Source: Flectonema sp. DT1601
Lineage: Eukaryota
NCBI GenBank assembly: GCA_964019425.1
Contig: OZ025797.1
Coordinates: 558,001-622,000, forward strand
Direction of reading: 5' to 3'
DNA: 64,000 bases
Of this stretch, positions 1 to 63,560 are shown in pieces. Position 1 is the first letter of the stretch, and each line of letters begins with the position of its first letter. The notes below the pieces were generated by a model. That model was not told the origin of the DNA. It worked only from the letters and a program-made list of their open reading frames with translations, and searched no databases. Position numbers and translations under genes: made by a program.

Positions 1-6
1 AATGAT

Positions 7-3000
7 GTGGATAGGTTACTTTTTCAAATTATAATTCTCAAATGTCTGGTTGACAGTAAATCAAAGGCTCACGCTTTCAACATACGCGTTGTTATTGAAG
101 CACAGCGTAGTACGGAACTACTAGATTTATTTAACAAACGAGTTGTTGATCTCGAAACCTGGAATCGTAAAAACGTTATCATCACAACAACGAAGGAGGA
201 CCAGAAAGAGGACCTTATGAAAAGACTTGGTACGATGCCCATGACGCAATGGAGGACACTCTCAGCTTTTTATGATGTCCATAGCGGCGTAGCGGATGAA
301 GATATCATCGAAAAGATTATGAAATCAAACAATACTCAAACCTATCCTTTCTTAAAATTAAAGAATCCAATTATTGATAAATACAGAAACCAGTCTATTC
401 CGATTGGCTATCCATCTTTCATATGGACTCGTGAACTCGCTGATTTAATGGTTCAGTTAGACACTTGGTACACAGCACGGATTCCTATTATATTGGAGGG
501 TGAGACTGGTTGTGGAAAAACCTTCTTAGTAAAGTGTTGGTGTGCTCTTCGTAACTTATCTCTGGAAGTGATTACTATTCATGGTGGATATGATATGTTT
601 CGAATTAAGGAAATGTTGAGGGAGAGAGTTAAGAAGGCACTAAAAATATACCGAAGTACACCATGTCGAAAAAGAACTGTGATATTCCTGGACGAGATGA
701 ACACAACTTCTTCAGTTGATCTTCTGAAAGAAGCAATTTGTGATTTCCGTCTTGATGGTAAGACAATGATAGATTCGCAGAAAGATACTTGCTTGCATCA
801 TGTGACCTTTATTGGTGCGATCAACCCTGATCGTAAACGAACCGAAAAGGAATTAGAGAGATATCGTCATCAGGGATTACAAGTGTTGTCAGGAAATTCA
901 ACAAATCTCGCGGACAAGGTTTATCGAGTTCACAGTTTACCTGAAACACTTAAACAATATTGTATAAAGTTCCCTGACATGGGTGAAGACATTATGGTTC
1001 GGTCTATTGAACACACAATCGAATCGGAGAATATTAAAAATGATTATTTTATTAAATTAATTAAAGCCGCTCACTTTTATATGATATCTGACGACAGCGA
1101 CTATCGTGTTGCGAATATTCGAGACGTGAAGCGAGTCGTATCTGTGTATAAGTTATTCATGGGATTACATAAGTTATGCATGGGATCACTCTGTACTGAG
1201 TTAGAGATGACACCAGATTCAGCGAGTATGGTCGCAATTCATGTTGTTTATGTTTCTAAATTAAATAACAGAAGCGGTCTTTACTCAAAACTCGGAGATA
1301 CTTTTGAGAGTACAGTTCTACAAGTTCAGAATCGTTTCATGGAATTCATTAAACTACCGAAAGGTATAGTTCTGAATGATGCTCTTAGAGATAATGTGTT
1401 TATGATGATTGTTGGAATTACTCTTAAGATTCCAGTCTTTATTATCGGACCTCCTGGTACCAGTAAGTCTTTATCAAAAAGTATTGTCTCTGAGGTGATG
1501 ATTGGGATTGCGAGTCAGAATTCTTTATTTCAAAAATTACCAGAAGCAACGTTAAGAGTTCTACAGTGTTCTCCTCATACGACAGCAAAAGATTTGTCTG
1601 ACCATTTTGATGATTGCTCTCGAAACAAAAACGACGTCGTCGTTCTGGAAGAAGCAGGTCTCGCTGAAATGAGTCCAGAAATGCCTTTGAAACTTCTTCA
1701 TGAGAAGTTTGATGAAAGCGAATGTCCCTGCATCCTGACTTCAAATTGGAATATTGATCCAGCAAAGATGAATCGAGGTCTGTTCTTAACTCGTAGTATG
1801 CCATCAGATGAAGTTTTATTAGAAACTGCGAAGCTATTTGCTGGAAGTAGTCATCAAGTGTTGGAGAAGTTCTTAACTGGTCTTTCAATTGGATTTAAGG
1901 AAGCCGCTGAATTCATGAGAGGAATGAAAGAATTTCCAGAAGGAGCATTCTACGCTTTGAGAGATTTCTACAACTGCGTGAAGATGATTGTTTCACTACC
2001 TGATCCAGTTCCTCATTGTATTCGAACTATTGTCCATAAGAACTTTTCAGGACTTCCTGAAACTCCTCAGTTGGAGGTGGATAAGATATTCGAATCTAAA
2101 ATGGAAATCCCAATCCGGAAATTTAATTTTACTCTTTCTCAAATCGAAATCTCAAATTCGTTTCAAGACATCGACAACGGAAGGTTTCCACTGATTGTGT
2201 CGTCGAATATTTCGTCGACACTTTATTACTTAAAACCTGAACTAGAAATACTGCTTCCCGACGGGTTTGAAGTTGTTTCAGGAAGTGGGTTCTCAAGAGA
2301 TTCAGACCTCGAGTACACAAAGAAGTTGATATCAAGAATCCGTCCAATCTTAAACAGCGGTCGTGGATTGGTTTTATTAAATGCGAACACTTCTTATGAA
2401 AGTCTTTATGATTTATTTAATAAACACTTTACTGAATTCGATGATCAACAGTTTGTAGACATTGGTCTTGGAAGGACTAAAATAAATGTTTCGGTTCATA
2501 AAAACTTTAAACTGGTGTTACTTGTGAATCGCTGGGATGCGTATCATGCTTTTCCACCACCGCTTTTAAACAGATTTCAGAAGCACTGTTTCTTCGTGGC
2601 CGATGATGAAGCAACTGCTCTAAAGAAATGGATCATTAAGGAAGGGAACGTCCGTGGTCAATGTCACGGACTTGGTAAACTTGATGATGAATTAACATGC
2701 ACAGATCCACCAGCTGATGAACAGCTGGCAATGTTACTTTCAGTTTGTGGTTCAGCAGACGAAGCTAAGAAGTCTTTGAAACATTGTTTTGCTGTCCCCT
2801 TAGACGCAAAGCATACCAGTCTGGAAAGCGTTTTAAGTCTTGGGGGACCAATGCATGTGACAGTTGATCAAAGTAAGCATCTCTTTGAAAGTAAAGATAG
2901 CGACATCGTATTGATTGATGTCGGTGCCGTTAAAACAAAAGAAGAACTGATTAATGAATTGTCATCTGTTGCAAGCAGCAATGCAAAATATATAATTATT

Positions 3001-6000
3001 TGTTTGTTTAGTGATTCTTTACATGTCTTCTCAACAGTAGACTTGGCTATCAGAGAGGAACTACCAAAAGAAAAAACAATTCTTGTAACCGACCCTTCTG
3101 TGATAAGATCCTTTGATGGATACTACTCACATCACCATGTCACTACTGCTGTGAAACATGTTTGGAGTGGACTTGATGACCATTTATTTAATATTGATAA
3201 AACGAACCTTTGGAATGCAGTTCTCCACACAATAGAATCTGATGATCTGGTAGTTAATAATATTATTAAATGTAAACCTGAGTGGTGTATTTCATATTGT
3301 GAGAGTCTCTTGTCTGATGGTTGGTTTTCTGAATGTATTCTGTCGGGTACATTAGAGAGTCAAACAATAGATAAAAAAATTATTAATTATCTACAAAATG
3401 AAATGATAAAACATTTAAAGGATCACCTGACTATGGAATTACCAAAAACAAAAAGAACCCTTAAAATGATGCCTGAATTTCTAAGATTTCCCTGGCTCAA
3501 TGAGGGAACTATCGACTTGCTTGTCCAGGAGGCGGATATTGATGTCGAAAACTTCTTTCCTTTCGCTGACGGGTTGGCTGTTGCCATAAGCAAGCTTATC
3601 CCAAATCCGGGCAGTAAACCTTTTGCATCGTTGTCGGGAATTACTAAGACACTAATGGGAGATTATTGTATGAAGTCCGATATGGCTAAACGTTATTTCG
3701 AAACTCGTCATAGCGCCACTGCGGATGAAATCGACAGGCTCAGCAAATGCTATGAGGATGGAAACCCTGCCACGCAACTAATTGCCGGTCACATAATATC
3801 GGAGACTAGGCCTCCAGGTGTTGTTGTAGATCATTATCCTAAAGAGGTAACTCCTGAATCACTTTGGAATGTATTTGTACTGGATGAGGAACATCAGTTA
3901 AATGACGTCCATAAACTAAACGAAACAGAGTCAGAATCAGTGCCACACGGGGAGTCAGATTCGGAAATAGGACGTTCCGAACTGTTAACACAACAAAAGG
4001 AAATCGATCCGAATGAAGTACTGCAAGACATTCGAGAAAGTTTTGTTACGGTTGGGGAAAACGCTGAGAACATGAAACAAATGCTGCACAGAAGTATCGA
4101 GTTGATAGCCACAGATGCAGTAGCTTCAAGATTTCATTTTGTTTTTGAGTTGCTGCAAAACTTCGATGATGCCAAGTACTCGTCTAAGGTGATTCCAACT
4201 GTGATGGTCGTCACAAACAGAACAGAATATTCGGAATTTGCTGTTTTCGGATCGAATGAAATCGGGTTTACGAAAACTGATGTTCGATCCATCTGTAATG
4301 TGGGTTTAAGCACCAAAAAGGGACGAGAAGGATTCATCGGTGAAAAAGGGATTGGGTTCAAGTCAGTTTTTGCAGCAACGAATAATGCATCTATTTCTAG
4401 TAATGGGTACAATTTTAAGTTTGAAAAGGACAAGTCTGATTTGGGAATGATTTATCCTCTTAGTTGCGATACTAAAGAAATTGATTTCCTATCAGACTTA
4501 CGCGAAACAAATGAAATACAAACCTGTATTGTGTTGAAGGGTTCTGTGCCGGTAGATGCGATCAACAAAATAGACGAGAGGTCTTTATTGTTTTTCAGGA
4601 AAATTAAAAAGATCAATATCGACTCAACTACCTGGCATCGCATAGAAGAAGAAGACAATGAAATAGTTCTTCGTAATGAAGTGACAAAGGATAACAAACG
4701 TTTTCATATTATCCACAATGTGATCAACGATGTTGAAGTGACTATCGCATTTCCGTATTCACCATCGGTAGCGATATCGTATCCAGTTTTTAGTTACCTT
4801 CCGATAAGGAAAGCTGGTTTTAATTTTATTCTGAATGCCGATTTCAAATTAACCTTAAATCGTTGTGATATTCACAACGATTACGAAAGTAATAAAAGAA
4901 TCAAAGATGTTTTCACTACAACATTTGAACAACTTCTGGTTGACGACAATTCAAATTTTCCAGCAGTTGCGTATCTGCCAGTAGATGCAATAGATGATGA
5001 CTTCTTTGGGGATTCAGTTAAGGAATTGTTACAAAAAGTTTCGACAATGAAATGTATAAAAACAACTGACGGAGAGATGTCTATTCCGAGTAAAGTTGTT
5101 ATCATTCAAACAGATGATAGCTCTTGTTTGGATTGGATTAAAAAGTTTAAAGGTACAGATCAGGTTTGTTTTGCTCATCCAGACATCGCAAGACGATTAT
5201 CAGATTCAATCATCAGAACTTTAAATATTAAAAGATGGTCGTTAGAGCAACTATTGGATCTCATCTCATCTAATTCTCATCGGTATTGTAATGAGGATTC
5301 TGATTTCTTCATTGAAATGATAAAAGTAATGTTTAATAGTAATAAAATAAGAGGTCAATCAATTACTCTTTATAAACTGTGGCCTCGTGAAGGAGATTCT
5401 TCAAAACTATACACATCCACACTTTTGAGTATTTCAGACCTCCGAAGAGATGTTTTTGACAAACTCACCGACGAGTTGAAAGAGTTTCTGACTCGAGAAA
5501 TAGGTCTCACAAACATCTCGGGCCAGTTGCTTACTCCGCAGGGATTGATTGATACGGCAGCTTCTCGTGATCCGAGTGAGTCATTGGCGTTTTACATCTC
5601 ATGTGTTGAAAAGAATTATGACGAAAATACTTTGAAACAAATTAGAAAAAAGGTTCAGCTAAAAAGTGCTAAAGAGGAATACGAAAGTGCAAACTCTCTC
5701 TTTGAAAGTAAATTCAAAAATATTTTAAATAACTCGTCAGTAGTTTGGGATGGTTACAATCATTCAGAGCAACGATACTTTGAAGATCTCGGTGTTGCTT
5801 CCTCTTTGAGAATATCACCAATGGGATATCTCTCTGAAAGTATCTTGCAAGGTGGAAATATTATCGAATTTTTGAAATACGTAAATTCGAATTTTTCAGA
5901 ATTTAAATACGATTTTCACGCAAATTGGTGGACAGTCCTACCCGACACGATCCAAAATACAAAAATTGAAACAAACTTGGGATCATATTCTCTCAGAGAT

Positions 6001-7269
6001 GTGTATTTTATCAAAGGACTCAGCGGGTCTAACCGTATTTCTGATACGATAAATTCGCATTTTCCTATCGCTGAAGTCGATATTATTGGTTGTGAAATTT
6101 TAGCAGAACAACTCAACGTAAAGATTATTGACATTGACAATTTGGATATCGGCGATGGTAAGGGTGATTTATTTTCGTTAATAACTCAAAATCCAAGACT
6201 ACAGGAGTTAAGTGGTATTCATGTTCCTCTTGTTGGAGGAGGTACGGCCGCACCTGATAAAGAGTTGTTGATTTGCGATATAGAAGACGCGGATCCTGCT
6301 GACATTCTTGAGAATTTTAATATCCAAGTTGCGGATGTCTCACCTGATGTGATATCAACTTTATTAAAACGTCCTAAATGTAAACGTTTATCGAGTAAGA
6401 CAAAAATAAAAACAAAACCATGTCAACCTCACTACAGCTCACCACTGCGAGCGGCAGCTCTCCTAACTCGTTGCTCTGAAAGGTGCGATGGAGAATTTGT
6501 ATTTATTGGAAAAGCGTCTGGTTACATTGTCCCTCCTGGATGTGGAAAGCTGAAAATTGGGTTCCATTGCGAACCGACGACTTCTTTTCCAGGAAAACTG
6601 ACTGAGTATAGTAAAATATATTTCTTTAATAAACTGATGGAGTATGCTCTTCCTTACACAGTTGCTGGGGAGGAGGACGGTGATGACGCGCACAAGTTCA
6701 TGGCATATCGTAAATCAGACAAACTATTGTTTGTCGGTGAAGGCAACTATTCCTTCTCGAATTCAGTAAAAGAAAATCTGAAGAGCGACAACGTAGCTGC
6801 GTGTGATATTCGGTCCAACGGAAGAAACGGAACTTACGGTGACGCTACTGACAGCAAGATCTACCGAGGCGGTTATTATGATTTCATTATATTCAACTTC
6901 TTGCACACATTCGGAAGTCAAACAGGTTCAGCTGATGTTATGAATTTGTCGATAGAATCAAATCGGGAATTAATAAATGGATTCTTCAGGGCTGTTCCTA
7001 AAACGAACTTCACAAAGATCCACGTGACTTTGAAAACAACTTTCCCATATTCTCATTGGGATTTAATTGATATTGCTAAACGTTGTGGTTGGGAGTGTGT
7101 CAGATCATTTCCATTTCCTGAATCATTCTATCGCGATATTGGATATCGTCACACAACTACTAATCCCAAATTGAGAATTTCTGGTGGTGTCAGCTTAAAG
7201 GGCGCTCTGACGTTTGAATTTGTAGCCATTCTTGGGAGTGATTCTGCGAGTGTTGTGAGGAATCATTAA
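7..7269 (+). CDS. Giant RNF213/mysterin-like multi-AAA+ protein fused to a sacsin/NO VEIN-like GHKL ATPase and a C-terminal BMT5/DUF2431-like methyltransferase domain; probably 5'-truncated by the window edge
   Basis: Walker A GETGCGKT with Walker B IFLDEMNT; second AAA GPPGTSKSLS and SNWNIDPAKMNR, plus FPPPLLNRFQKH (RNF213-like). HFVFELLQNFDDA and GEKGIGFKSVF are sacsin/Nov GHKL motifs. LLFVGEGNYSFS, DFIIFNF.H and VTLKTTFPYSHW are DUF2431-like. 2420 aa open frame with no introns. Confidence 0.8.
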   Translation: MDRLLFQIIILKCLVDSKSKAHAFNIRVVIEAQRSTELLDLFNKRVVDLETWNRKNVIITTTKEDQKEDLMKRLGTMPMTQWRTLSAFYDVHSGVADEDIIEKIMKSNNTQTYPFLKLKNPIIDKYRNQSIPIGYPSFIWTRELADLMVQLDTWYTARIPIILEGETGCGKTFLVKCWCALRNLSLEVITIHGGYDMFRIKEMLRERVKKALKIYRSTPCRKRTVIFLDEMNTTSSVDLLKEAICDFRLDGKTMIDSQKDTCLHHVTFIGAINPDRKRTEKELERYRHQGLQVLSGNSTNLADKVYRVHSLPETLKQYCIKFPDMGEDIMVRSIEHTIESENIKNDYFIKLIKAAHFYMISDDSDYRVANIRDVKRVVSVYKLFMGLHKLCMGSLCTELEMTPDSASMVAIHVVYVSKLNNRSGLYSKLGDTFESTVLQVQNRFMEFIKLPKGIVLNDALRDNVFMMIVGITLKIPVFIIGPPGTSKSLSKSIVSEVMIGIASQNSLFQKLPEATLRVLQCSPHTTAKDLSDHFDDCSRNKNDVVVLEEAGLAEMSPEMPLKLLHEKFDESECPCILTSNWNIDPAKMNRGLFLTRSMPSDEVLLETAKLFAGSSHQVLEKFLTGLSIGFKEAAEFMRGMKEFPEGAFYALRDFYNCVKMIVSLPDPVPHCIRTIVHKNFSGLPETPQLEVDKIFESKMEIPIRKFNFTLSQIEISNSFQDIDNGRFPLIVSSNISSTLYYLKPELEILLPDGFEVVSGSGFSRDSDLEYTKKLISRIRPILNSGRGLVLLNANTSYESLYDLFNKHFTEFDDQQFVDIGLGRTKINVSVHKNFKLVLLVNRWDAYHAFPPPLLNRFQKHCFFVADDEATALKKWIIKEGNVRGQCHGLGKLDDELTCTDPPADEQLAMLLSVCGSADEAKKSLKHCFAVPLDAKHTSLESVLSLGGPMHVTVDQSKHLFESKDSDIVLIDVGAVKTKEELINELSSVASSNAKYIIICLFSDSLHVFSTVDLAIREELPKEKTILVTDPSVIRSFDGYYSHHHVTTAVKHVWSGLDDHLFNIDKTNLWNAVLHTIESDDLVVNNIIKCKPEWCISYCESLLSDGWFSECILSGTLESQTIDKKIINYLQNEMIKHLKDHLTMELPKTKRTLKMMPEFLRFPWLNEGTIDLLVQEADIDVENFFPFADGLAVAISKLIPNPGSKPFASLSGITKTLMGDYCMKSDMAKRYFETRHSATADEIDRLSKCYEDGNPATQLIAGHIISETRPPGVVVDHYPKEVTPESLWNVFVLDEEHQLNDVHKLNETESESVPHGESDSEIGRSELLTQQKEIDPNEVLQDIRESFVTVGENAENMKQMLHRSIELIATDAVASRFHFVFELLQNFDDAKYSSKVIPTVMVVTNRTEYSEFAVFGSNEIGFTKTDVRSICNVGLSTKKGREGFIGEKGIGFKSVFAATNNASISSNGYNFKFEKDKSDLGMIYPLSCDTKEIDFLSDLRETNEIQTCIVLKGSVPVDAINKIDERSLLFFRKIKKINIDSTTWHRIEEEDNEIVLRNEVTKDNKRFHIIHNVINDVEVTIAFPYSPSVAISYPVFSYLPIRKAGFNFILNADFKLTLNRCDIHNDYESNKRIKDVFTTTFEQLLVDDNSNFPAVAYLPVDAIDDDFFGDSVKELLQKVSTMKCIKTTDGEMSIPSKVVIIQTDDSSCLDWIKKFKGTDQVCFAHPDIARRLSDSIIRTLNIKRWSLEQLLDLISSNSHRYCNEDSDFFIEMIKVMFNSNKIRGQSITLYKLWPREGDSSKLYTSTLLSISDLRRDVFDKLTDELKEFLTREIGLTNISGQLLTPQGLIDTAASRDPSESLAFYISCVEKNYDENTLKQIRKKVQLKSAKEEYESANSLFESKFKNILNNSSVVWDGYNHSEQRYFEDLGVASSLRISPMGYLSESILQGGNIIEFLKYVNSNFSEFKYDFHANWWTVLPDTIQNTKIETNLGSYSLRDVYFIKGLSGSNRISDTINSHFPIAEVDIIGCEILAEQLNVKIIDIDNLDIGDGKGDLFSLITQNPRLQELSGIHVPLVGGGTAAPDKELLICDIEDADPADILENFNIQVADVSPDVISTLLKRPKCKRLSSKTKIKTKPCQPHYSSPLRAAALLTRCSERCDGEFVFIGKASGYIVPPGCGKLKIGFHCEPTTSFPGKLTEYSKIYFFNKLMEYALPYTVAGEEDGDDAHKFMAYRKSDKLLFVGEGNYSFSNSVKENLKSDNVAACDIRSNGRNGTYGDATDSKIYRGGYYDFIIFNFLHTFGSQTGSADVMNLSIESNRELINGFFRAVPKTNFTKIHVTLKTTFPYSHWDLIDIAKRCGWECVRSFPFPESFYRDIGYRHTTTNPKLRISGGVSLKGALTFEFVAILGSDSASVVRNH

Positions 7270-11192: not shown

Positions 11193-12053
11193 TCACAAAG
11201 AAGAATCTACACTGTGGTGCAGATTACTTCTGCGTAGGGGTTGTACCGGGCTGTTTCGATTCGACGGGACACCGGCACCACCACCACCACGCGAGTTAAA
11301 GAACGACCCCAACGCTTGTTCAACCTTCGCTCTCGTTCCGTGTGAGACTTCCTCTCGAGAAGGAATGTCTGCTGGGTTTAGCTTCGTGCTTACCCAGGCA
11401 AGGGAGTAGGAACATTTCAAAACTAAAAGGCATTCAATCGCAGTTATCAAACACCTGTTGAGACTGTGTGAGCGAACACACATCTTCTTCCTAAAAGCAC
11501 CACAAACTGTAGTGTTGTCAACCCAGATGGAAAGGTGGTCGGCCTTTGCAATTCCTTTGAGTGTCTGTCCAAGAGCGTCCGCTTCAAGGATATTTATATG
11601 TCGGTCTTCACCAGCAGGCCATGCCGCACCAAGAATTTCCAGCTCACCTGTTTTCCAAACGATGACACCTCCCCATCCCTGCAATGAGGCATCTACAAAC
11701 ACTTCGGCAGTCCTCCCCTCTTTCTGCTCAGGCATAATTATTCTCTCCTTCTGCACAGCACCGATCCACATTTCTAATTCCCTCCTTACTGAACGGGGCA
11801 ATTTTAGTACCTGCTGTACTTGTAGGGTCCCCTTGTTCAAGTAATTTGTGACCCTCGGGACCTCTCGTGGGCTCGGAAGCCTTCTGTGTCAGGCCGCATG
11901 TCGTGTCTACAATGAAGTGTCAACTTGGAACTGTTACGAACAAGAGGAATCCAACTGGTTAATTAAACCACAGCATGTCGCTTCATCACAGCGGTGGCGA
12001 GTGGCATGTGACTTCTGCCCAGTGCCCTGAATGCCAACGCTGAGAGATCAGGT

Positions 12054-12088
<35 letters not shown>

Positions 12089-22037: not shown

Positions 22038-22116
22038 GGCTATATAGCTCAATTGATAGAACGCCGGTCTGCAAGAATGGCGGTCGAGGGTTCAAAACCC
22101 GCTGACGGTGGTTTTT
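22038..22116 (+). promoter_or_regulatory. Degenerate tRNA-like sequence (A box, B box, T5 terminator), divergent from the LINE 5' end
   Basis: TAGCTCAATTGATAGAAC D-arm, ccggt-CTGCAAG-aatgg anticodon-like arm, GGTTCAAAACC T-loop, then TTTTT. The acceptor stem does not pair. Confidence 0.5.
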
Positions 22117-22140
22117 GTTTGGTGCTCAGTTTCGGTGGCA

Positions 22141-44090: not shown

Positions 44091-47000
44091 TTAAATCTTT
44101 ACGGCTCCAGGTACAGCTTTGCCATCGCGATTTCCCCTGTTGTGTTTGATTTTTTTTATGCACCCCCCCCCCTAGGGGAACTTTGATACGATACGAAAAG
44201 ATTTATCTGGGAAGAATACTGCAGGTCTTTGCACAAAAAAATAAAAATACTGTCACCATGAAACAGAAGGCGTTGAACATTGCCTGGTTTCTTTGGTGGA
44301 GGCCACGTGAACGTAGTTGAGCACCTCTTGCCTACGCTACCGTAACAGTGAAAAACAGCTGTAAATTAAAATCAATGTGAAAAAAATAAAATGAAACCAA
44401 AGGTTAACAGTGGACGAATCCGACGTAAGGCTTTCCTAGACTACTCGAGTCTTCAGCGGTCCGCTCGGTGATAGCAGCCTAGGAAGGACAAGCTCACCCA
44501 TCTGCCTGGAGACCATTCAAATTGGCTCGCTCTAAATTGGCGACCTAAACGCTCTACCCTATCGCCGCGATTGCCACTGACAACCTCTAACCAACTATAC
44601 TACGACCAAACATAAGGGGAAAGGGGAAAGTGTGCTTATACCTGTACAGCCACGACTCTCGATTTCCGTAGTGGGGGGACTTTGATACGATACGAAAAGA
44701 TTTATCTGGGAAGAATACTGCAGGTCTTTGCACAAAAAAATAAAAATACTGTCACCATGAAACAAAAGGCGTTGAACATTGCCTGGTTTCTTTGGTGGAG
44801 GCCACGTGAACGTAGTTGAGCACCTCTTGCCTACGCTACCGTAACAGTGAAAAACAGCTGTAAATTAAAATCAATGTGAAAAAAATAAAATGAAACCAAA
44901 GGTTAACAGTGGACGAATCCGACGTAAGGCTTTCCTAGACTACTCGAGTCTTCAGCGGTCCGCTCGGTGATAGCAGCCTAGGAAGGACAAGCTCACCCAT
45001 CTGCCTGGAGACCATTCAAATTGGCTCGCTCTAAATTGGCGACCTAAACGCTCTACCCTATCGCCGCGATTGCCACTGACAACCTCTAACCAACTATACT
45101 ACGACCAAACATAAGGGGAAAGGGGAAAGTGTGCTTATACCTGTACAGCCACGACTCTCGATTTCCGTAGTGGAGCCCCCCGCGGCACTCCCTATATAGT
45201 GCACTATGCTTGACTCTTTTGCTATATAACTTGTCCCTTGGGCTATATAGGAAAAGCAGCAAAGAACTCAACATGGAAAAAGCCGTTAAAACATTTGTCT
45301 GGTTAAAACGGATCGGTGGGTAAAATTACGCAAGAACAACCATAAGGTCTCCCACGGTTTAATGTAGCACATCTCCACGCCAGTCTCAATGACCGAGGTA
45401 ATGTACTAAGGGGGAACTTTGATACGATACGAAAAGATTTATCTGGGAAGAATACTGCAGGTCTTTGCACAAAAAAATAAAAATACTGTCACCATGAAAC
45501 AAAAGGCGTTGAACATTGCCTGGTTTCTTTGGTGGAGGCCACGTGAACGTAGTTGAGCACCTCTTGCCTACGCTACCGTAACAGTGAAAAACAGCTGTAA
45601 ATTAAAATCAATGTGAAAAAAATAAAATGAAACCAAAGGTTAACAGCCGTAGTGGGGGGGGGGTACAAGCTGTCGATAAAGTACTTTTTCCGAATTTTGG
45701 TAAATATAACCTTCCCGGGGGCAAAAAATACCCAGGACCCCATCAGAACCCCCAAAAATGTGATTTCGGGGCCGAAAAAACCTCGATTTGGCTGATTTCG
45801 GCAAAGGAATGAAAAATCTCAAAAAGTGTGGACCGTGTGGTACCTGGGGGTCCAATTTTGAGGCCTGTGAAATGCACCTTCAAATAATTTTTTTTTACAA
45901 TGAGAAGAGGTGAGTCTTGGTGTGCCCCTGTATGCGCAGTTTGCTAATATACCATTTCCGTATCAGTTTCCACCTCAAGAACACGCCACGAAAAAGAACA
46001 GCGCTCTCGCTCGGCCATGCTTGAGGCCACGAGGCTCACGGGCAGGATAACGCAGCGGAAAACAACGTTCTGCAGGGCAGCTCACAAAGTCATTCTGCGG
46101 AGGAGAGCATTGATCCCAGAGTGCATGAAAACACCTCCCGAGGCATCTCTGAAGTCACGCAACAACACTTGGACAGTCAGAAGTAAGATACGCGCGAGAA
46201 AGGGGTTCAGAAACGTCCAGTATCTGAATCGTGATCACAGAAGGCTCACAGAATGGAGAAAGCGCCACGTCAGTACCCCAAACAGGGATAATCCTGAAGA
46301 CAGCTGTAGTGGTAGTGCGTCAAATAGCAGTGCCATAGATAAGCAGCAGCGACATAGGGCAACATGCCCTATCCAAAAAGCCGTTCAAGGCATCACTTAA
46401 GACCCAACCATACTCACCAGCAGGGCATACAAGACACTCTAGTATATGCAGCATAAGGAGAAGTACGAAAGACACACCCGCTTGCAACTGTACCCAAACG
46501 AGGGAGATATACTCCTGGAGTCTTGGAGTCGTAACAACACTGCAGATATTGCGGCAAGAAGGGATCGCCGCAGAGACATGCAACAAAGTCCTGAGTGAGT
46601 GACATAGTTGAAGCTGTCGCAGGTGCGCAGACAGAAGGGAAGCGGGTCGAAGTCACCAACTATATCTCGAAGGACAGTCCGACTTGTTGATGGATTCAGG
46701 TGATCTGTCGGTGACCTGACTTCTTGAAGCAGCAGCTTCCTCTTCACCCTCCGTCACATTGCTGCAGCATGATACTTCCTCTAGTCCCCGTCGTGCTCGT
46801 GGGATGAAGCTAACAACCGTTGTGTTCGTTGTCATCCTGCACCCCTCAAGGGATGGGGAGGTTATTCAGTGTTGTTGATAGTTCTTGGTCAACTGATGGA
46901 ACCAGTGGCGTGAATGTTGCCCTACTGATAACGTACAACATATTCCAGAGGCACACGGGCTTCCAAAGGCTACCACATCAACGCAGGACCACCGACCCTC

Positions 47001-48291
47001 TTCAGATTGGCAAGAACAAGCACAACAGGAGGCGCTACAGGGGCTGAACGTACCACCCCGTCCTCACAGGGAAGACCTCTAGACAGCAAGGTCTAATGCT
47101 AATCTGCCGTCTGCATCCAAGGATTGGTCCTCTGTCTATCTTGTACAGAAAGAAGCACAGCTTCGGGCCGAATTTCGAAAGCTGAGCACATGAGATGCTC
47201 AAGAGAAGGCCAGTAGCCTAAACATCGGACAAGGGGGAATTAACACGCCGGGTCTCGTGTAGCATATTATTAAGGTTCAAATCAGGTCGATAAAAATAAA
47301 AATTGGGTTCCCTTTTCATCCCCCACTCAACTCGGAGGGAAACCCTGGTTATGGATTGCTCAATGCACGGAATTACTTGTAATTTTTGTGAGCCCTCCTA
47401 ACACACCCCCTGTTTTCACCCCCCTCAGGTACCACACGGTCCACACTTTTTGAGATTTTTCAAAGACTTGTTCTAAAGTGCCGAAGAACTGTTTCTTTGG
47501 ATCGCAATCCCCATTTTTGGGGTATATGTTGCAGTTTTCATAATTTGGGTGCACAAAAAACTTGTTCTCCGGAAAAAAACCGAAAGTGCCCAAAATCTCC
47601 GTAAAATCGATGCTTGTACCCCCCCCCTACCCCAGACGAATAAGAAGCTAAGAATATTTTTATTTCTCACACCAATCCAATACTAAATAACAAAAACATA
47701 CATCAAACACGGATCAAGTGAAGTGTTCTTTGGCTGTACACCAGTACTGGGGAGTAGGTTAGCATCGAATCCGGGAGTCCAGCCAGGCTTTCTTTTGAAA
47801 TGAGTTCTGCAGTATTGACACATGGCAGTACGGTCTGGAGGTACAAAAATCCACGACATGTGGTGACGGTTAGCACGCTCACTTCCTCCAGTTTGAGTTT
47901 TAAGTGGAGTAAAGTAAGTATTATTAGACGATCCTGAACCAAAACAGGTCACAGTCGTTGCCTCAACTTCGATTGCAGAGTCTGGAGTCTGTCTGCCAGC
48001 CCAGGCCATGTCGGGATTACTTTGAGCACCCGATTCTCTAAAAATAGATCGAGTTGATGTTGTGAAATGACCGAGTCCTCCCGATGGTTTACTAACTCTG
48101 AAGTTGTTACTCATCTCTCTTCTTGTATAATATTCTTCATCAAAATGTGAATCTGACTTACCACCCCAAACTGGGTTCCAAAAATTCCAGGCAGCGGTCT
48201 CATTGTACCTAGTAGTCCCCATCCCATCAACATTTACAGCGAGTTCTTTCGGTTTTTCAGCTAACCGAACCCCGCATCGCCGCAGGGCCAT
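44091..48291 (-). CDS. Mitochondrial zf-CHCC protein (NDUFS6/COX5B-like zinc-binding subunit); exon 1 48291-47702, predicted exon 2 44136-44091
   Basis: MALRR presequence-like start; VTCFG...H..WIFV...CQYCRTHF. GTATGT donor at 47701 and CAG acceptor at 44139-44137 join in frame to give MGNRDGKAVPGAVKI*. Confidence 0.6.
44175..45655 (-). mobile_element. Head-to-tail array of a 499-bp non-coding element (44175-44674, 44675-45173, internally deleted copy 45410-45655); putative non-autonomous Penelope-like element
   Basis: Near-identical direct repeats with a 499 bp period. Motifs are shared co-linearly with both ends of the PLE at 58.4-63.6 kb. Confidence 0.7.
45654..47627. mobile_element. ~2 kb non-autonomous TIR DNA transposon with G-run termini and a probable TA target duplication
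   Basis: Ends G10TACAAGC...GCTTGTAC9; ~40 bp inverted subterminal match between 45812-45850 and 47421-47460; TA at 44173-44174 and 47628-47629; no intact transposase. Confidence 0.75.
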
Positions 48292-58433: not shown

Positions 58434-61400
58434 GGGGGGTAACTTGATACTAATATTAAATGGAAAGCAACTTGAAACTGGCAAAAACGAGAATAGGGTT
58501 CGGCCAAACCTGGTTGCAATATAAGAAATCAACAGTTGGTATCGATAGAAAATCCCATATGTGCTGTCGAATATGGGGATTCGGGGGCCACGTACTACAG
58601 GTTGAGCACCCCATGCCCTGTAGCCCGTTACAGCTTAAAATAGTATTCCTTCACACTTCAAAGGTAAATAAATATTAAAGGAAAATTAAAAAAAGAAAAC
58701 TATTTTTGCAAAAATAATAAAAGAAATAAAGAATAAAAATAAAATATAAATTATTTCTGGTTCGTAGCACACTACCAGTGGAGCACATCTCGCAATACTT
58801 TGCTGCGAGTGATAATTAACTACGTTCGCTTTGCTCTCGAAAGACTGTACAATGAGTTTGGTGTGATCTTAAGCCTCGTAAATTAAATTGTCTTCCGGCC
58901 TGAGATTCCGTGGCACCACACGCAGTACAGATGAATAATCCCAAACAACTCAAACAAACATCATAATCACAGTCTTTTTGTCTACATTGGAATGCAAGAT
59001 TATAAGTGGTTTGTGGCATGTTGCGATCACAGATATTACAGTACATATTACTACTTACCTTCGCAAATTTCAGGTTGTGTCTTGCTGGACATAAGTGGAG
59101 CTCTTCTTTAAAGATTAGAATGTCTGAATCTTCTAATAAATTAATAAGTACATCCACAACTAGCTCTTCATCAATCGTATTAGAACTTGAGGAAGTAGTT
59201 GAGGAAGATGAATCGGAAGAGGTCACAGATACGGTTTCTGAGGTTAAATCTGAGCAACTTGACATTGTTGTGGCTGCTTTCATTTTGATCTCATCGAAGT
59301 ACCAGTAATGCAACAGTTCGTAAACATCATAATTAACGTTGTCGAAGGTTAAAAGGTTCATAGTGGCACCCGCTTTCGATAGAAGAGTATCAGCGTCGAC
59401 AAAATTAGGACACATTTTCGCTAATTCAGGTACTATTAAATTCATGAAAGCCTCATAATTCCATTGCGACATAGTAAATATGGTGCATTGTTTTCCGTGA
59501 CTTCTCGGTAAAATTGGCATATAGTGCTCAGAAGTAGTATGGTACGCCATTACACCGATCGTACCCCAAAAATATGTATCTTGTGTACTGGCTGGGGAAA
59601 TCCATCGTAAACTTTTTTCCTGCACGCTATTAATAGTGATTAGTATTAAAGAACAACCCATTTCATCTAAGAAAGCTTGAATATACACATGATCTGTATA
59701 TGTATTACTGTCAAGTACATCTTCTGTGAATTTTTCATAATCTGTGTCTACAAAACTTTGGTATTGCGCCTTCTTTAAAGTCAGTCTACGATGTATAACT
59801 CTACGTACCCATTCAGCGTTTATGACTCCATTTTGACAAATTATTAGTGCCATAGATTCAAAGAAACAATTACCTGCTGTGTTTACCGAGGGTATTGTTA
59901 AGTCCCAGTCCATAGTTTCTAGTAGAGTTTTCATATCCCGAAACGTAAAATAAGAAACCAACTCGTCCAAATGTCCCAGATTCACCTTGGCATCCGAATT
60001 GGTAGGGGATGACAATTTTTGAACTAGGACAGCTGTTCTGTCGGTTTCAATTTCATCTTTTTCGATGGGCGGGTACGTTATATAGTTTCTTTCACCAGTC
60101 GGGTAGTAATAATCTTTCTTCAAGCCTTCAAGGATCCGGTAGAAAAGATTGATGCATCTTTTATTGACAAAAGGATATTCTTCATAGAATTCGTCACAAA
60201 ATTCCTTGTAGCCGGTTGATATGTGATGCTTTTTAAATTTTCTAGTAATCATCCGATAAATTATCCATTCAAACTCTATTAGTAGGTCAGAGAGGTTGTT
60301 ACAAATCATGCTGGCTCTATACATCGCTCCTTTAACTATACCTTTGGGTATGGAATCAGGCATCGTGGAGTCTGCATGCACGTACTGTAAAGGTTTGAAG
60401 TTCCACTCTTTCCGATGAACGGAGAGACGAATAAATTTCTTTTTCACTTTCACTTCTTCCCTTGCAATGTCTTCCTCGACCCGTATCCGTGCACCAAGAA
60501 ACACCACATCATTACTATCTAGGGAGGTATCTTTGTAGTCCATGCCGTACATCTTTTGCGGCGGTGGTTTTGTCCCCCAGCATAAAAAATCATCAATATA
60601 TCTTACTGTTAAAGTATGTGACTTCGCAATTTCCAGAGTTGACTGTTCTATAAATTTCTTCTCAACTGCATAACAATACAAGTTAGCTAGAAGCGGGGAG
60701 GCATTACCACCCATGGGTATCCCTTTCGTTTGACGGTAGCATTGATGACTACCAATCGGTTGGATTAAAGAATAGTCGATACACATGTCAATTAGTTTAC
60801 CAATCATTTCGGAAGTGTATTCCTTTGTGTTTGCATCAACTCCGTCTGTGAAAAAGAAAGTCTTGGACTTTCCACGTGCTCTGCTATTTCGTGCAATATG
60901 TTTCTTACCGGAAAATCTAAAAGCTTCATCTACTGCTTCTTTGCAATTTCGTTTAAGTACCTTATGCTTCAGGTTGCTGTACATGGTGGTGAAGTCATAA
61001 GTTTTGGGTTCAGCGTATTTTAAAAATTCAGGGTAGTTGGATTTAATCCGTTGTATTACCTCATCTACTGAGTCAACAATAAAATATTTTCTAACACCAG
61101 TCTTTACATATTCCATATGGTCCTTTGATTTTAGTGTGAGCAGTATTAACTTAATAATTCCAGTAAGTTCTTGTTGAGCGTGTGTCATTACATTGGATCG
61201 AAAAACTCTCTCTCTTGTATTGGTCACCTTCTTTGATTCGTCAGTCTCTTTGTCAGGTTCATTCGTTTCCTCAATCAAAGTTTCACAGTTGACAGAAGTA
61301 CCTGCAATCCATCTAAGGCGGATGTCTGGGATCTTATGCAGTTTAAAAATCCCATATAAGTACGGCACTGCGCCAGTGATTTTTGGAAATTTGAGTTCCT

Positions 61401-63560
61401 TATTTGTTTTCATTAACCCGTCTGTTAATACATTTTCTACTTGTTCGTAACTTTCCATTTCATTTTTCAATAGCTCACAATAATAAGCTTTGCACATTAC
61501 TGCGCAATCATGTCTTGCTTTATCCACTGGGAGGAATAGGACATGTTTTTTTAGGTCCTTTAATTCTCTCATACACTTTGCTAAAGTTGCATCGTTGGGT
61601 AAGGGTTTTAATTGTATTTGTGAAGTGAATTCTTCCTTCAGCCATCTATTTAAGACTTCGGCGTTTGCTTCTCTGTCGCTTTTAGTTGTCCCAATCATGA
61701 ATCTCGTTACTTTTTCGGTAAATCTATCAGCTGCTTCATGAAGTTCTTGTGTCATCTCATGTTGTGAACAGTGAATACGGTAAAGCATTCCTAACTTTAG
61801 TACCTCTTTTAGTTGATCACTACATTTCAAAGAAGAACAATGTCCTGCAACATGTTTGGTATTACAATTATCTTCTTTGTATTGATAACAAGGACATTGT
61901 TTATCATTTAGTGGAGGTGACTTTTCTAACTCAATCGTATTTGTGTTAAATATTTTCGATCCTAAAGTTCTGCTGAGTCCATAGGATGTTTTGGTAGGTA
62001 AACCAGAGGGTAGTAACTTCTTATACTTTTCTTTTATGAATACTGCATTAAAGTCCATTTTCTTCACACAAGGGTGCAGCATCTTCAGACAAAACCAGTG
62101 GCAATCAACCACACGATTCTTTTTTCTTTCTCTTTTAATTTTAAGAGCCTCGTTGAGTGCTACAATGATTGCTTGCATTTTATTATTTTCTTTCACTTCG
62201 TGACTTGCAAATCTTCGGATCCAGTGAAACATTCGTGAAATTCTTGTGAAAGACCAGTCTTTAATAACTTCAACATTAAGTGCTTCAAGATTGCATAAAT
62301 GCTGTAGTTGTTTCCTTAAGCCATAGAATAGGCGAAACTTTGGGTTCGGTCCGACATCAGTGATGATCACTCGACCATTATTTATTTTCGTCCAATTTGA
62401 AGGGGGTTCGTTAGTATTCTTTTTCCGTCTTCTTCTTTTTATCTTTTCCGTCGGGACTTTCGTTCGTGTGGATGCTTTTTTGTTATTTTGTACTTTCTTC
62501 TTTCCCAGTATATTATAATGCGGTTTGAAATGACTGATCCAAAACCTCTCGGCTGGGTCAGCCATATTACGGAATAGGAAACTGTTGTTTTTCAGGAAGT
62601 CGGGTTCATTAATTACTTCCAGTGTCACTGGGAATAATGGATATTTTCTCTTACGTATGAATTTGTATAATGGTTGAGTACATTTCCCCTGTACTGAGCG
62701 ATTGCTCCAGTGTTGTTTTTCTCGATCTCTCGCAGTTTTATAAGTTTGACCAACATAACGGATATGTCCTCTCTCACACAATAAACCATAAATTACACCT
62801 TTACAATCTTGAGGCTGTGCTTCAAAAGAGAGTCCACGTTGTTGGCGTGCTGTCCTTAACTTCTTTGAATAGTTCTGTTCAAACTTTCGTCTTGCTTCTT
62901 TTAATGAAACTTCGTACTGATCATCTCTACGTTGGTTCTTTTCTAAGATCTTCCGGTCTTTAAATGCAACAGTGTGAACAGAACTTTCATCTTTGGCTCT
63001 GCGAACTACTGATTTGGCAATTCCAAACGGTATATGGTCAAGAGCTAAAGATAATTGGGATTTGGGAGGTGAAGTATTTTGGGATAAATTATAATTTTGC
63101 ATGAGTGTTATTAATAAAGGTAACTGTTAACTCTAAAATAGTTAACTATTTTTTTGGGAAGCTTGACCCTAAAACTGCTTTTTTAAGAAAATAAAAATAG
63201 TAAAAATTAAATAAAAATAATGAAAAGAGATTAAAGCTTTCTCAAGAAGGCTAAGGAAATGAAAGGGAAAAAGGTTGTCAGGGGATTATTGAAAGCAGGG
63301 GATGAAGGTCGGGTCAGGGCTACTTCCCAGCCACAAAACCTTCATCCTAAAACCCCTGCAGCACTTGATGACTGCTCCTCATCTAATATGGGATCTAACC
63401 TACTAGTCCGCAGACGACTACCCTACTGACGGTGTTCCTATTAGTCAGTCAATAGTGTCCATCTACGACAGCGGGTCATCAAATACACAAGATAATAGAA
63501 AGAGAAAGAAAAGAGAGAATTGACTAACCCTGTACTGAACAACCATCTCAGAACGGAAGA
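58434..63560 (-). mobile_element. Penelope-like retroelement with N-terminal endonuclease (Naiad/Chlamys-type domain order); boundaries inferred
   Basis: Single intact ORF with GIY-YIG before RT. Ends inferred from motifs shared with the 499-bp repeat and from a G-run at 58425-58439. Confidence 0.8.
58816..63102 (-). CDS. PLE polyprotein: GIY-YIG endonuclease, reverse transcriptase, OTU-like cysteine protease and zinc fingers
   Basis: GVIYG..RYVGQT...R.KQH...AERFWI..YN (GIY-YIG); PVDKA, YDFTTMYS, QTKGIPMGGNASPLLANLY, RYIDD and VFLG (PLE RT); AGNCFFESMA...VRR...HYMPI (OTU-like); Cys clusters at the C-terminus. Confidence 0.88.
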   Translation of the reverse strand: MQNYNLSQNTSPPKSQLSLALDHIPFGIAKSVVRRAKDESSVHTVAFKDRKILEKNQRRDDQYEVSLKEARRKFEQNYSKKLRTARQQRGLSFEAQPQDCKGVIYGLLCERGHIRYVGQTYKTARDREKQHWSNRSVQGKCTQPLYKFIRKRKYPLFPVTLEVINEPDFLKNNSFLFRNMADPAERFWISHFKPHYNILGKKKVQNNKKASTRTKVPTEKIKRRRRKKNTNEPPSNWTKINNGRVIITDVGPNPKFRLFYGLRKQLQHLCNLEALNVEVIKDWSFTRISRMFHWIRRFASHEVKENNKMQAIIVALNEALKIKRERKKNRVVDCHWFCLKMLHPCVKKMDFNAVFIKEKYKKLLPSGLPTKTSYGLSRTLGSKIFNTNTIELEKSPPLNDKQCPCYQYKEDNCNTKHVAGHCSSLKCSDQLKEVLKLGMLYRIHCSQHEMTQELHEAADRFTEKVTRFMIGTTKSDREANAEVLNRWLKEEFTSQIQLKPLPNDATLAKCMRELKDLKKHVLFLPVDKARHDCAVMCKAYYCELLKNEMESYEQVENVLTDGLMKTNKELKFPKITGAVPYLYGIFKLHKIPDIRLRWIAGTSVNCETLIEETNEPDKETDESKKVTNTRERVFRSNVMTHAQQELTGIIKLILLTLKSKDHMEYVKTGVRKYFIVDSVDEVIQRIKSNYPEFLKYAEPKTYDFTTMYSNLKHKVLKRNCKEAVDEAFRFSGKKHIARNSRARGKSKTFFFTDGVDANTKEYTSEMIGKLIDMCIDYSLIQPIGSHQCYRQTKGIPMGGNASPLLANLYCYAVEKKFIEQSTLEIAKSHTLTVRYIDDFLCWGTKPPPQKMYGMDYKDTSLDSNDVVFLGARIRVEEDIAREEVKVKKKFIRLSVHRKEWNFKPLQYVHADSTMPDSIPKGIVKGAMYRASMICNNLSDLLIEFEWIIYRMITRKFKKHHISTGYKEFCDEFYEEYPFVNKRCINLFYRILEGLKKDYYYPTGERNYITYPPIEKDEIETDRTAVLVQKLSSPTNSDAKVNLGHLDELVSYFTFRDMKTLLETMDWDLTIPSVNTAGNCFFESMALIICQNGVINAEWVRRVIHRRLTLKKAQYQSFVDTDYEKFTEDVLDSNTYTDHVYIQAFLDEMGCSLILITINSVQEKSLRWISPASTQDTYFWGTIGVMAYHTTSEHYMPILPRSHGKQCTIFTMSQWNYEAFMNLIVPELAKMCPNFVDADTLLSKAGATMNLLTFDNVNYDVYELLHYWYFDEIKMKAATTMSSCSDLTSETVSVTSSDSSSSTTSSSSNTIDEELVVDVLINLLEDSDILIFKEELHLCPARHNLKFAKVSSNMYCNICDRNMPQTTYNLAFQCRQKDCDYDVCLSCLGLFICTACGATESQAGRQFNLRGLRSHQTHCTVFREQSERS

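Follow-up and report, generated by a model that had tools for sequence, protein, structure and literature searches.

A pseudoknotted motif resembling the twister-sister ribozyme core in the 3′ UTR of a Chlamys-type Penelope-like element and in a 499-bp repeat

We analyzed a 64,000-nt stretch of contig OZ025797.1 (the window; all positions are given in its coordinates). Its minus strand carries a Penelope-like element (PLE) with an ORF that contains an N-terminal GIY-YIG domain, CxC, DKA, RT, and a long C-terminal extension with Cys/His motifs. Pfam placed RVT_1 at aa 758–849 and, weakly and under the cut-off, GIY-YIG at aa 109–204 (E = 0.0023); in an alignment the GIY-YIG domain N-terminal to RT and the CxC and DK(A) motifs were all present. 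Judged by domain order and motifs, the PLE has the N-terminal-endonuclease layout of Chlamys/Naiad and is of the Chlamys type. The closest named relatives of the ORF came from Diplonema papillatum (30–33% identity, 10 matches among 4029 candidates), and the host of the PLE appears to be a diplonemid-like protist. In the consulted parts of PMC8557442, Chlamys and Naiad PLEs are described as mostly lacking canonical hammerheads, and Chlamys elements prefer (C)n and (CA)n targets. The CUGANGA core of the hammerhead is absent from the 3′ UTR of our PLE, and no pseudo-LTR (a second copy of the PLE 3′ end) was found within the window. A compact pseudoknot motif lies 212 nt past the ORF stop. The ORF, the parts of the motif, with their proposed equivalents in twister-sister (TS) and TS-like ribozymes, and the 3′ end are as follows:

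58816..63126, minus strand: PLE ORF, 1436 aa from stop to stop, first Met at 63102
58584..58633, minus strand: whole motif with its conserved 5′ flank, in the PLE 3′ UTR
58617..58624, minus strand: stem 1, 5′ strand, equivalent to TS-like P2
58613..58616, minus strand: GCA plus a variable base, putative upstream half of the TS short strand (G36, C37, A38 in LINE-1-rbz numbering)
58608..58612, minus strand: stem 2, 5′ strand, equivalent to TS-like P1, immediately 5′ of G7
58602..58607, minus strand: invariant GCUCAA loop, with the predicted cut between 58604 and 58603
58594..58601, minus strand: stem 1, 3′ strand
58589..58593, minus strand: invariant ACGUG linker, whose final UG is the putative downstream half of the TS short strand (U39, G40)
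58584..58588, minus strand: stem 2, 3′ strand
58434..58450, minus strand: PLE 3′ end, a terminal word common with the repeat and then a C run, where several contigs cease matching

The pseudoknot itself occupies 58624–58584 (minus strand), and the range 58633–58583 also takes in the 5′ flank. Contigs of two sequencing runs contained identical copies of the PLE motif, at low depth and with zero variants. Upstream of the ORF lies a GC-richer stretch with several apparent inverted repeats (63250–63480, minus strand). The C-terminal extension shows a Cys..His pattern and Cys/His fingers (59500–60100 and 58819–59100, minus strand). We take the Cys..His pattern to be suggestive of an OTU-like protease, for which Pfam returned no match in the extension. 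The relatives P0002, P0003, P0005, and P0009 carry PF00443 at the place of this extension, and protease modules seem to be swapped among these PLEs.

The motif recurs in a noncoding 499-bp repeat on the same strand, in three identical copies whose GCA loops begin at 45567, 44830, and 44331 (minus strand):

44175..45173, minus strand: two tandem 499-bp units, with 2 differences between units
45411..45660, minus strand: third copy, 5′-truncated and pseudo-LTR-like, 737 bp from unit 2
45535..45584, minus strand: motif copy in the 5′-truncated repeat copy, predicted cut between 45555 and 45554
44798..44847, minus strand: motif copy in unit 2, predicted cut between 44818 and 44817
44299..44348, minus strand: motif copy in unit 1, predicted cut between 44319 and 44318
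44911..44961, minus strand: in unit 2, a motif that imperfectly resembles a type-I hammerhead; its cut is predicted after 44916, 98 nt 5′ of the TS-type cut
44412..44462, minus strand: the same imperfect type-I hammerhead-like motif in unit 1

Because the repeat and the PLE have their terminal word in common, the repeat is likely a non-autonomous PLE. Non-autonomous Chlamys elements likewise resemble their partner elements at the 3′ end (excerpts of PMC8557442). The initial annotation had placed the motif ~120–150 nt from the 3′ end, and this is confirmed: the predicted cut and the common terminal word are 162 and 139 nt apart in the two window versions. Beyond the loops, both versions keep a 5′ flank ending in ACGG and, at the 3′ end, the terminal word with a C run after it. 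Where the 5′ flank can pair with sequence farther 3′, whether adjacent or distant, the pairings are short. A hairpin with a T-loop-like word (UUCGA or UUCAA) lies 3′ of the motif in both versions (58545–58582 and 45495–45530, minus strand); it could be a stand-in for the P4 loop of TS, and such words are frequent by chance.

The motif had been annotated as a covarying H-type pseudoknot on the sense strand, and its strings were found as written in the PLE and the repeat. All 24 cells of that structure were paired in the two window versions, with 12/12 pairs kept in each, a count that comes from two sequences only and from a structure derived from those same sequences. Between PLE and repeat, 7 of the 12 pairs had changed on both sides (6/7 in stem 1 and 1/5 in stem 2), and shifting the partners by 1–3 columns as a register control gave 29–50% pairing. 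An H-type pseudoknot of such size is by itself not rare: a loose descriptor matched 30 places in the window, 26 of them off the motif and four of them the motif copies, i.e., about one per 5 kb. This frequency, together with ordinary nested folding z-scores (0.58 and −0.80), is what can be said for the view that related 3′ UTRs pair here by chance, without selection for a structure. In sequence comparison, what stands above chance is the pairing of fixed loops with changing stems. Loop-letter matches in prokaryote and virus contigs reached at best 8 paired positions among the 160 listed (40 viral and 120 from prokaryote genomes, where the total was at least 120), vs 12–13 in the motif, and both stems together were absent among these 160. 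None of 60 viral pattern matches had a stem 1 of ≥6, and in 91 further ones the best stem 1 was 6, found in one, with none reaching 7.

The same motif occurs near the 3′ ends of three Chlamys families of Chara braunii, namely Chlamys-1, Chlamys-4, and Chlamys-6 (excerpts of the PMC8557442 supplement), at ~310, ~235, and ~180 nt from the 3′ end, respectively, as counted by eye. In that supplement one loop word occurs at 76 places and the linker word at 80; every place was inspected, and three held the motif. Since word searches miss motifs that are split by line ends or have altered loop letters (Chlamys-4 was found by one word only), the absence of the motif from the other supplement families is soft. 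The three families are the ones for which the listing gives a Josephin-like extension and no hammerhead, and the consulted parts of the PMC8557442 text contain no description of the motif. They share with our PLE the N-terminal endonuclease, the C-terminal Cys/His extension, the lack of a canonical hammerhead, the motif in the 3′ UTR and, by eye, a similar RT stretch past the DD motif. They differ in host, a charophyte vs the diplonemid-like protist here, so that the hosts of the motif span two eukaryotic supergroups. Searching metagenome contigs for related RTs yielded 36 loci of N-terminal-endonuclease PLEs out of 140 candidate stretches; the motif was found in none of the 36 loci, many of which are without a 3′ UTR. 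In viral contigs there were no relatives among 69 candidate stretches.

Five families carry the motif; Chlamys-1 and Chlamys-6 share a single core, which leaves four distinct cores. Within the window the support for stem 2 amounts to one double change, and the Chara homologues settle the stem. Over the four cores 20/20 cells of stem 2 pair, with the Chara pairs read by eye; at four of the five positions both partners change, and the fifth is U.G in the window versions and C-G in Chara:

Stem 2 pair 1 (outermost): repeat G-C, PLE G-C, Chlamys-1/6 C-G, Chlamys-4 C-G
Stem 2 pair 2: repeat A-U, PLE G-C, Chlamys-1/6 U-A, Chlamys-4 U-A
Stem 2 pair 3: repeat G-C, PLE G-C, Chlamys-1/6 C-G, Chlamys-4 G-C
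Stem 2 pair 4: repeat G-C, PLE G-C, Chlamys-1/6 G-C, Chlamys-4 C-G
Stem 2 pair 5: repeat U.G, PLE U.G, Chlamys-1/6 C-G, Chlamys-4 C-G

Stem 1, 7–8 bp long in the window and 7 bp or 5+2 bp in Chara (by eye), also changes in Chara yet pairs, with a single bulge in Chlamys-4. The words ACGG, GCA, GCUCAA, and ACGUGG are invariant in all five families, so that the loops GCA, GCUCAA, and ACGUG, said by the initial annotation to be conserved while the stems change, are kept in Chara too. Homologues with stem-breaking substitutions, which that annotation had set against its own structure, were looked for, and the Chara homologues keep both stems paired. Four distinct cores are too small a number for a covariation statistic. 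Full compensation over four cores and two supergroups, with none of the 160 listed decoys having both stems, speaks against chance pairing; the Chara sequences largely refute it, and we give it hardly any probability.

The initial annotation recognized no known ribozyme core, a statement that does not stand, since the loops and stem registers match the catalytic loop of TS and TS-like ribozymes. In the minimal TS-like core (excerpts of PMC11620745), G7 C8 U9 C10^A11 A12 lies opposite G36 C37 U38 A39 G40, with the pairs C8-G40, U9-A39, A12.G36, and A11.C37. U38 is flipped out in the TS-like core, and TS itself has A at 38. Among the TS-like mutants reported there, A39U retains 0.8 of activity and U38A lowers it to 0.47, the minimal cores being slow. 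GCUCAA in our motif is identical to the TS-like long strand and invariant in 5/5 families. Stem 1 starts directly after A12 and ends directly before G36, as in the TS-like core, and G7 follows immediately on the 5′ strand of stem 2, as it does on P1 in the OR4K15 core. The stem next to G7/G40 has 5 bp in all cores, if the final linker G is G40. Two of the three TS members listed from Rfam have exactly GCAAG and GCUCAA, the loops of the repeat, and crystallized TS sequences contain the same loop words (excerpts of PMC7373991). A TS-core descriptor (both orders, gap ≤120, stem ≥5) had four matches in the 128 kb of the two strands, which are exactly the four motif copies, all in sense; 200 shuffles gave 0.005 compact matches per shuffled window.

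The likeness is incomplete in the short strand and in topology. A contiguous short loop GC(A/U)AG is exact in the repeat, has one change in the PLE (GCAUG), and differs in its last two bases in Chara; a contiguous TS short loop was thus not found throughout, and the motif agrees with it only as the split GC(A) + UG. In TS, the P4 loop UGCAAG makes contact with the flipped-out A. The TS P4 loop word, CGU(G/A)CAAG, occurs shortly upstream in 3/3 Chara copies (one with G>A) and is not evident in the two window versions. The P3–P5 three- or four-way junction of TS is absent from the motif, as is the nested two-stem lantern topology of TS-like ribozymes, the stems of the motif crossing instead. An Rfam search, as proposed in the initial annotation, returned nothing relevant to the motif and no TS (RF02681) match at E up to 10. 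Compared with RF02681 (PDB 5T5A, 5Y87), the motif shares the words GCA(A)G and GCUCA(A/U) and the A at the flipped-out place, but differs in having no junction, a pseudoknotted order, no Rfam score, and a eukaryotic retroelement as host. With the LINE-1 and OR4K15 minimal ribozymes (PMC11620745) it shares GCUCAA, two stems in register, and the lack of P3–P5, and one of these also sits in a retrotransposon. As described in the excerpts, theirs is a nested hairpin with a whole 5-nt short strand and is poorly conserved, whereas ours is pseudoknotted, has an apparently split short strand, and is kept, with covarying stems, in 3′ UTRs from two supergroups. On the sequence evidence, then, the motif is TS-like by sequence and register and outside RF02681 on topology. 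A 2017 review states that TS cannot form the twister pseudoknot (excerpts of PMC6154101).

We consider it probable that the motif self-cleaves, and we favor, at a probability of roughly 0.55, the reading that it is a non-circularly permuted, pseudoknotted TS core with a split short strand. The TS short strand (GC-N-A/U-G) would be interrupted where its flipped-out base lies, with one half to each side of the long strand: GC would be supplied from upstream and UG from the downstream linker, with the two-stem TS core closed by the pseudoknot. The resulting order of pieces, stem-GC(A), stem-GCUCAA-stem, UG-stem, would be that of a classical H-type pseudoknot whose junction holds the TS core. Scission is predicted between C and A of GCUCAA, i.e., between 58604 and 58603 in the PLE.

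Alternatively, a TS-type self-cleaver could use a whole upstream short strand (GCA-A/U-G), with stem 2 capping the loop or joining two copies as a dimer. The upstream words GCAAG in the repeat and GCAUG in the PLE are both tolerated in TS-like cores, and PLE hammerheads often act as dimers (excerpts of PMC6765202). In Chara, however, the upstream position of G40 is a C that is paired in stem 2, and the downstream UG is invariant, which favors the split core. Rough A-helix distances, calculated with generic helix values, point the same way: with a split core, the 2-nt loop 1 would cross ~10–12 Å over 6–7 layers, whereas a whole short strand would leave no loop base to cross the groove, at ~13–15 Å. 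We therefore regard the whole-strand arrangement as quite unlikely. The split core in turn would have a linker of 3–4 nt if stem 1 is whole, vs ~34–37 Å to span by the same rough estimate; this is too short, so that 1–2 end pairs of stem 1 must open. The linker CGU is complementary to an invariant ACG in the 5′ flank, and the nested folding prediction pairs the two. This pairing would compete with the pseudoknot and, if formed, would block the proposed TS core.

The same ACG/CGU pairing enters a different explanation, an exoribonuclease-resistant RNA like the class 3 xrRNA of plant viruses, which would guard the last 150–300 nt from 5′-to-3′ decay. The outline matches, from a short basal stem (ACG/CGU) through a purine mismatch and a main stem to a 15-nt loop (4+5+6) whose middle pairs with the 3′ tail, as in the stem-loops of Tombusviridae and Solemoviridae (excerpts of PMC6299227, PMC7668246, and PMC12397905). 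The location in the 3′ UTR and, in the repeat, just behind the predicted hammerhead cut would also suit such a role. The details differ: the L2B T-loop UUGCAA, present in 5/5 listed xrRNAs, is replaced by GCUCAA, the AGY docking motif is missing, a single base separates basal stem and knot, and Rfam gave no match. We judge an xrRNA unlikely.

Other self-cleaving classes were compared with the motif and set aside. The hammerhead core (CUGANGA + GAAA) is not in the motif. The HDV-like fold, a nested double pseudoknot with P3, P1.1, and P4, found no room between the stems and no Rfam match, which agrees with the initial annotation in calling the motif too compact for HDV. The core words of twister, pistol, and hatchet are absent, for pistol also in comparison with a sequence.

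The split TS core has a parallel in the type-SGC hammerheads, to which non-circular permutation has hitherto been confined in the reports consulted (excerpts of PMC10085705). In these, too, a catalytic core is rebuilt from reordered blocks and pseudoknots are needed; they are another ribozyme class, and that study, which reports only hammerheads, detected no rearranged twisters. In the literature searched, mainly open-access, we came upon neither a PLE with a TS-type motif nor a TS with a pseudoknot.

Hammerheads of this type turned up among the relatives of our PLE. Sense-strand hammerheads were found in 11 of the 36 metagenomic loci (L061, L063, L066, L069, L072, L073, L076, L079, L083, L085, and L092; e.g., L061:5310-5400), nine of them behind the ORF stop, vs one match on reversed sequence. 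In all 11 the order is cleavage site, GAAA, CUGANGA, i.e., type SGC, and in several stem II is, by eye, split into a junction with upstream strands. Three of the carriers (L061, L063, and L073) are of the nearest RT type. With hammerheads in 11/36 relatives, nine behind the ORF, the place of our motif is that of a ribozyme slot, which thus appears to be filled, in the autonomous elements observed, by a ribozyme of either the one or the other class.

In a further explanation, which takes up the RT recruitment suggested in the initial annotation, the RT or endonuclease picks its own RNA by a knot near the 3′ end and the TS likeness reflects a reused structural module. Such a binding signal would fit the presence of the motif in both the autonomous PLE and a noncoding repeat with the same 3′ terminal word, and the 3′-end resemblance of non-autonomous Chlamys to their partners (PMC8557442) is of the same kind. 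It would also fit the retention of the motif in the repeat despite the hammerhead-like motif there. That motif lies 98 nt upstream, and a second cutter at this place requires explanation; it makes the either-or pattern less clear and allows for a role of the pseudoknot in binding or protection. Its descriptor matched 0 of 20,000 shuffles of the unit, having been composed after the motif had been noticed. On the other hand, relatives of the same RT type have a hammerhead where our PLE has the pseudoknot and no such knot themselves, and the letters that never vary belong to a known catalytic loop and stand in its register. A protein-binding signal is, in our view, improbable. RT recruitment and RNA stabilization, the two roles put forward in the initial annotation, gained no specific support from any result, and the analogy with telomerase drawn there was borne out by none. 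As a separate observation, the predicted cut of the hammerhead-like motif falls a few bases before the start point of the truncated third copy.

For other PLEs, it has been proposed that the hammerhead cleaves transcripts of tandem copies and that circles may result (excerpts of PMC6765202 and bioRxiv 10.64898/2026.07.22.740005). Our motif resembles the pseudo-LTR hammerheads of PLEs and the non-LTR retrozymes described there in its position near the 3′ end and its tandem non-autonomous units, and differs in having no hammerhead core. By analogy, a self-cleaving split TS core would process tandem or read-through transcripts to unit length before they are reverse transcribed; cuts between 58604 and 58603 in the PLE and at 499-nt spacing in the repeat would free such unit-length RNAs, and the 499-bp units would be retrozyme-like passengers. 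The broadest form of the proposal is that a ~45-nt, non-circularly permuted TS with a pseudoknot, conserved in PLEs from diplonemid-like protists to charophytes, is the missing ribozyme of hammerhead-less Chlamys and drives its own retrozyme-like tandem repeats; we hold this at a little under even odds. A TS-type cutter, if true, would account for RNA processing in one branch of the Chlamys/Naiad elements, which are described as mostly lacking canonical hammerheads. Different ribozyme classes would then be interchangeable in the PLE slot, a class found among bacterial sequences would have a conserved eukaryotic home, and non-circular permutation would reach beyond hammerheads. The motif also offers natural covariation on the disputed active site of TS.

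Several other features were noted in the window. Two 41-nt inverted repeats (45810–45850 and 47422–47462, 98% complementary, 1.57 kb apart) likely represent a small DNA transposon that adjoins the repeat array. Overlapping ORFs at 11193–15694 (minus strand) gave weak RT and viral-polymerase C-terminal matches and include one that we take to be recombinase-like; this element is likely of the DIRS/TATE type. Inside it, Rfam scored a piece of LSU rRNA at 11839–12158 (plus strand). An intact two-ORF non-LTR retrotransposon with AP endonuclease, RT, and RNase H, and with short tandem repeats in ORF1, occupies 16175–22125 (minus strand). Finally, a 2422-aa ORF at 1–7269 (plus strand), open at its 5′ end, contains AAA, sacsin-like, and BMT5-like domains.
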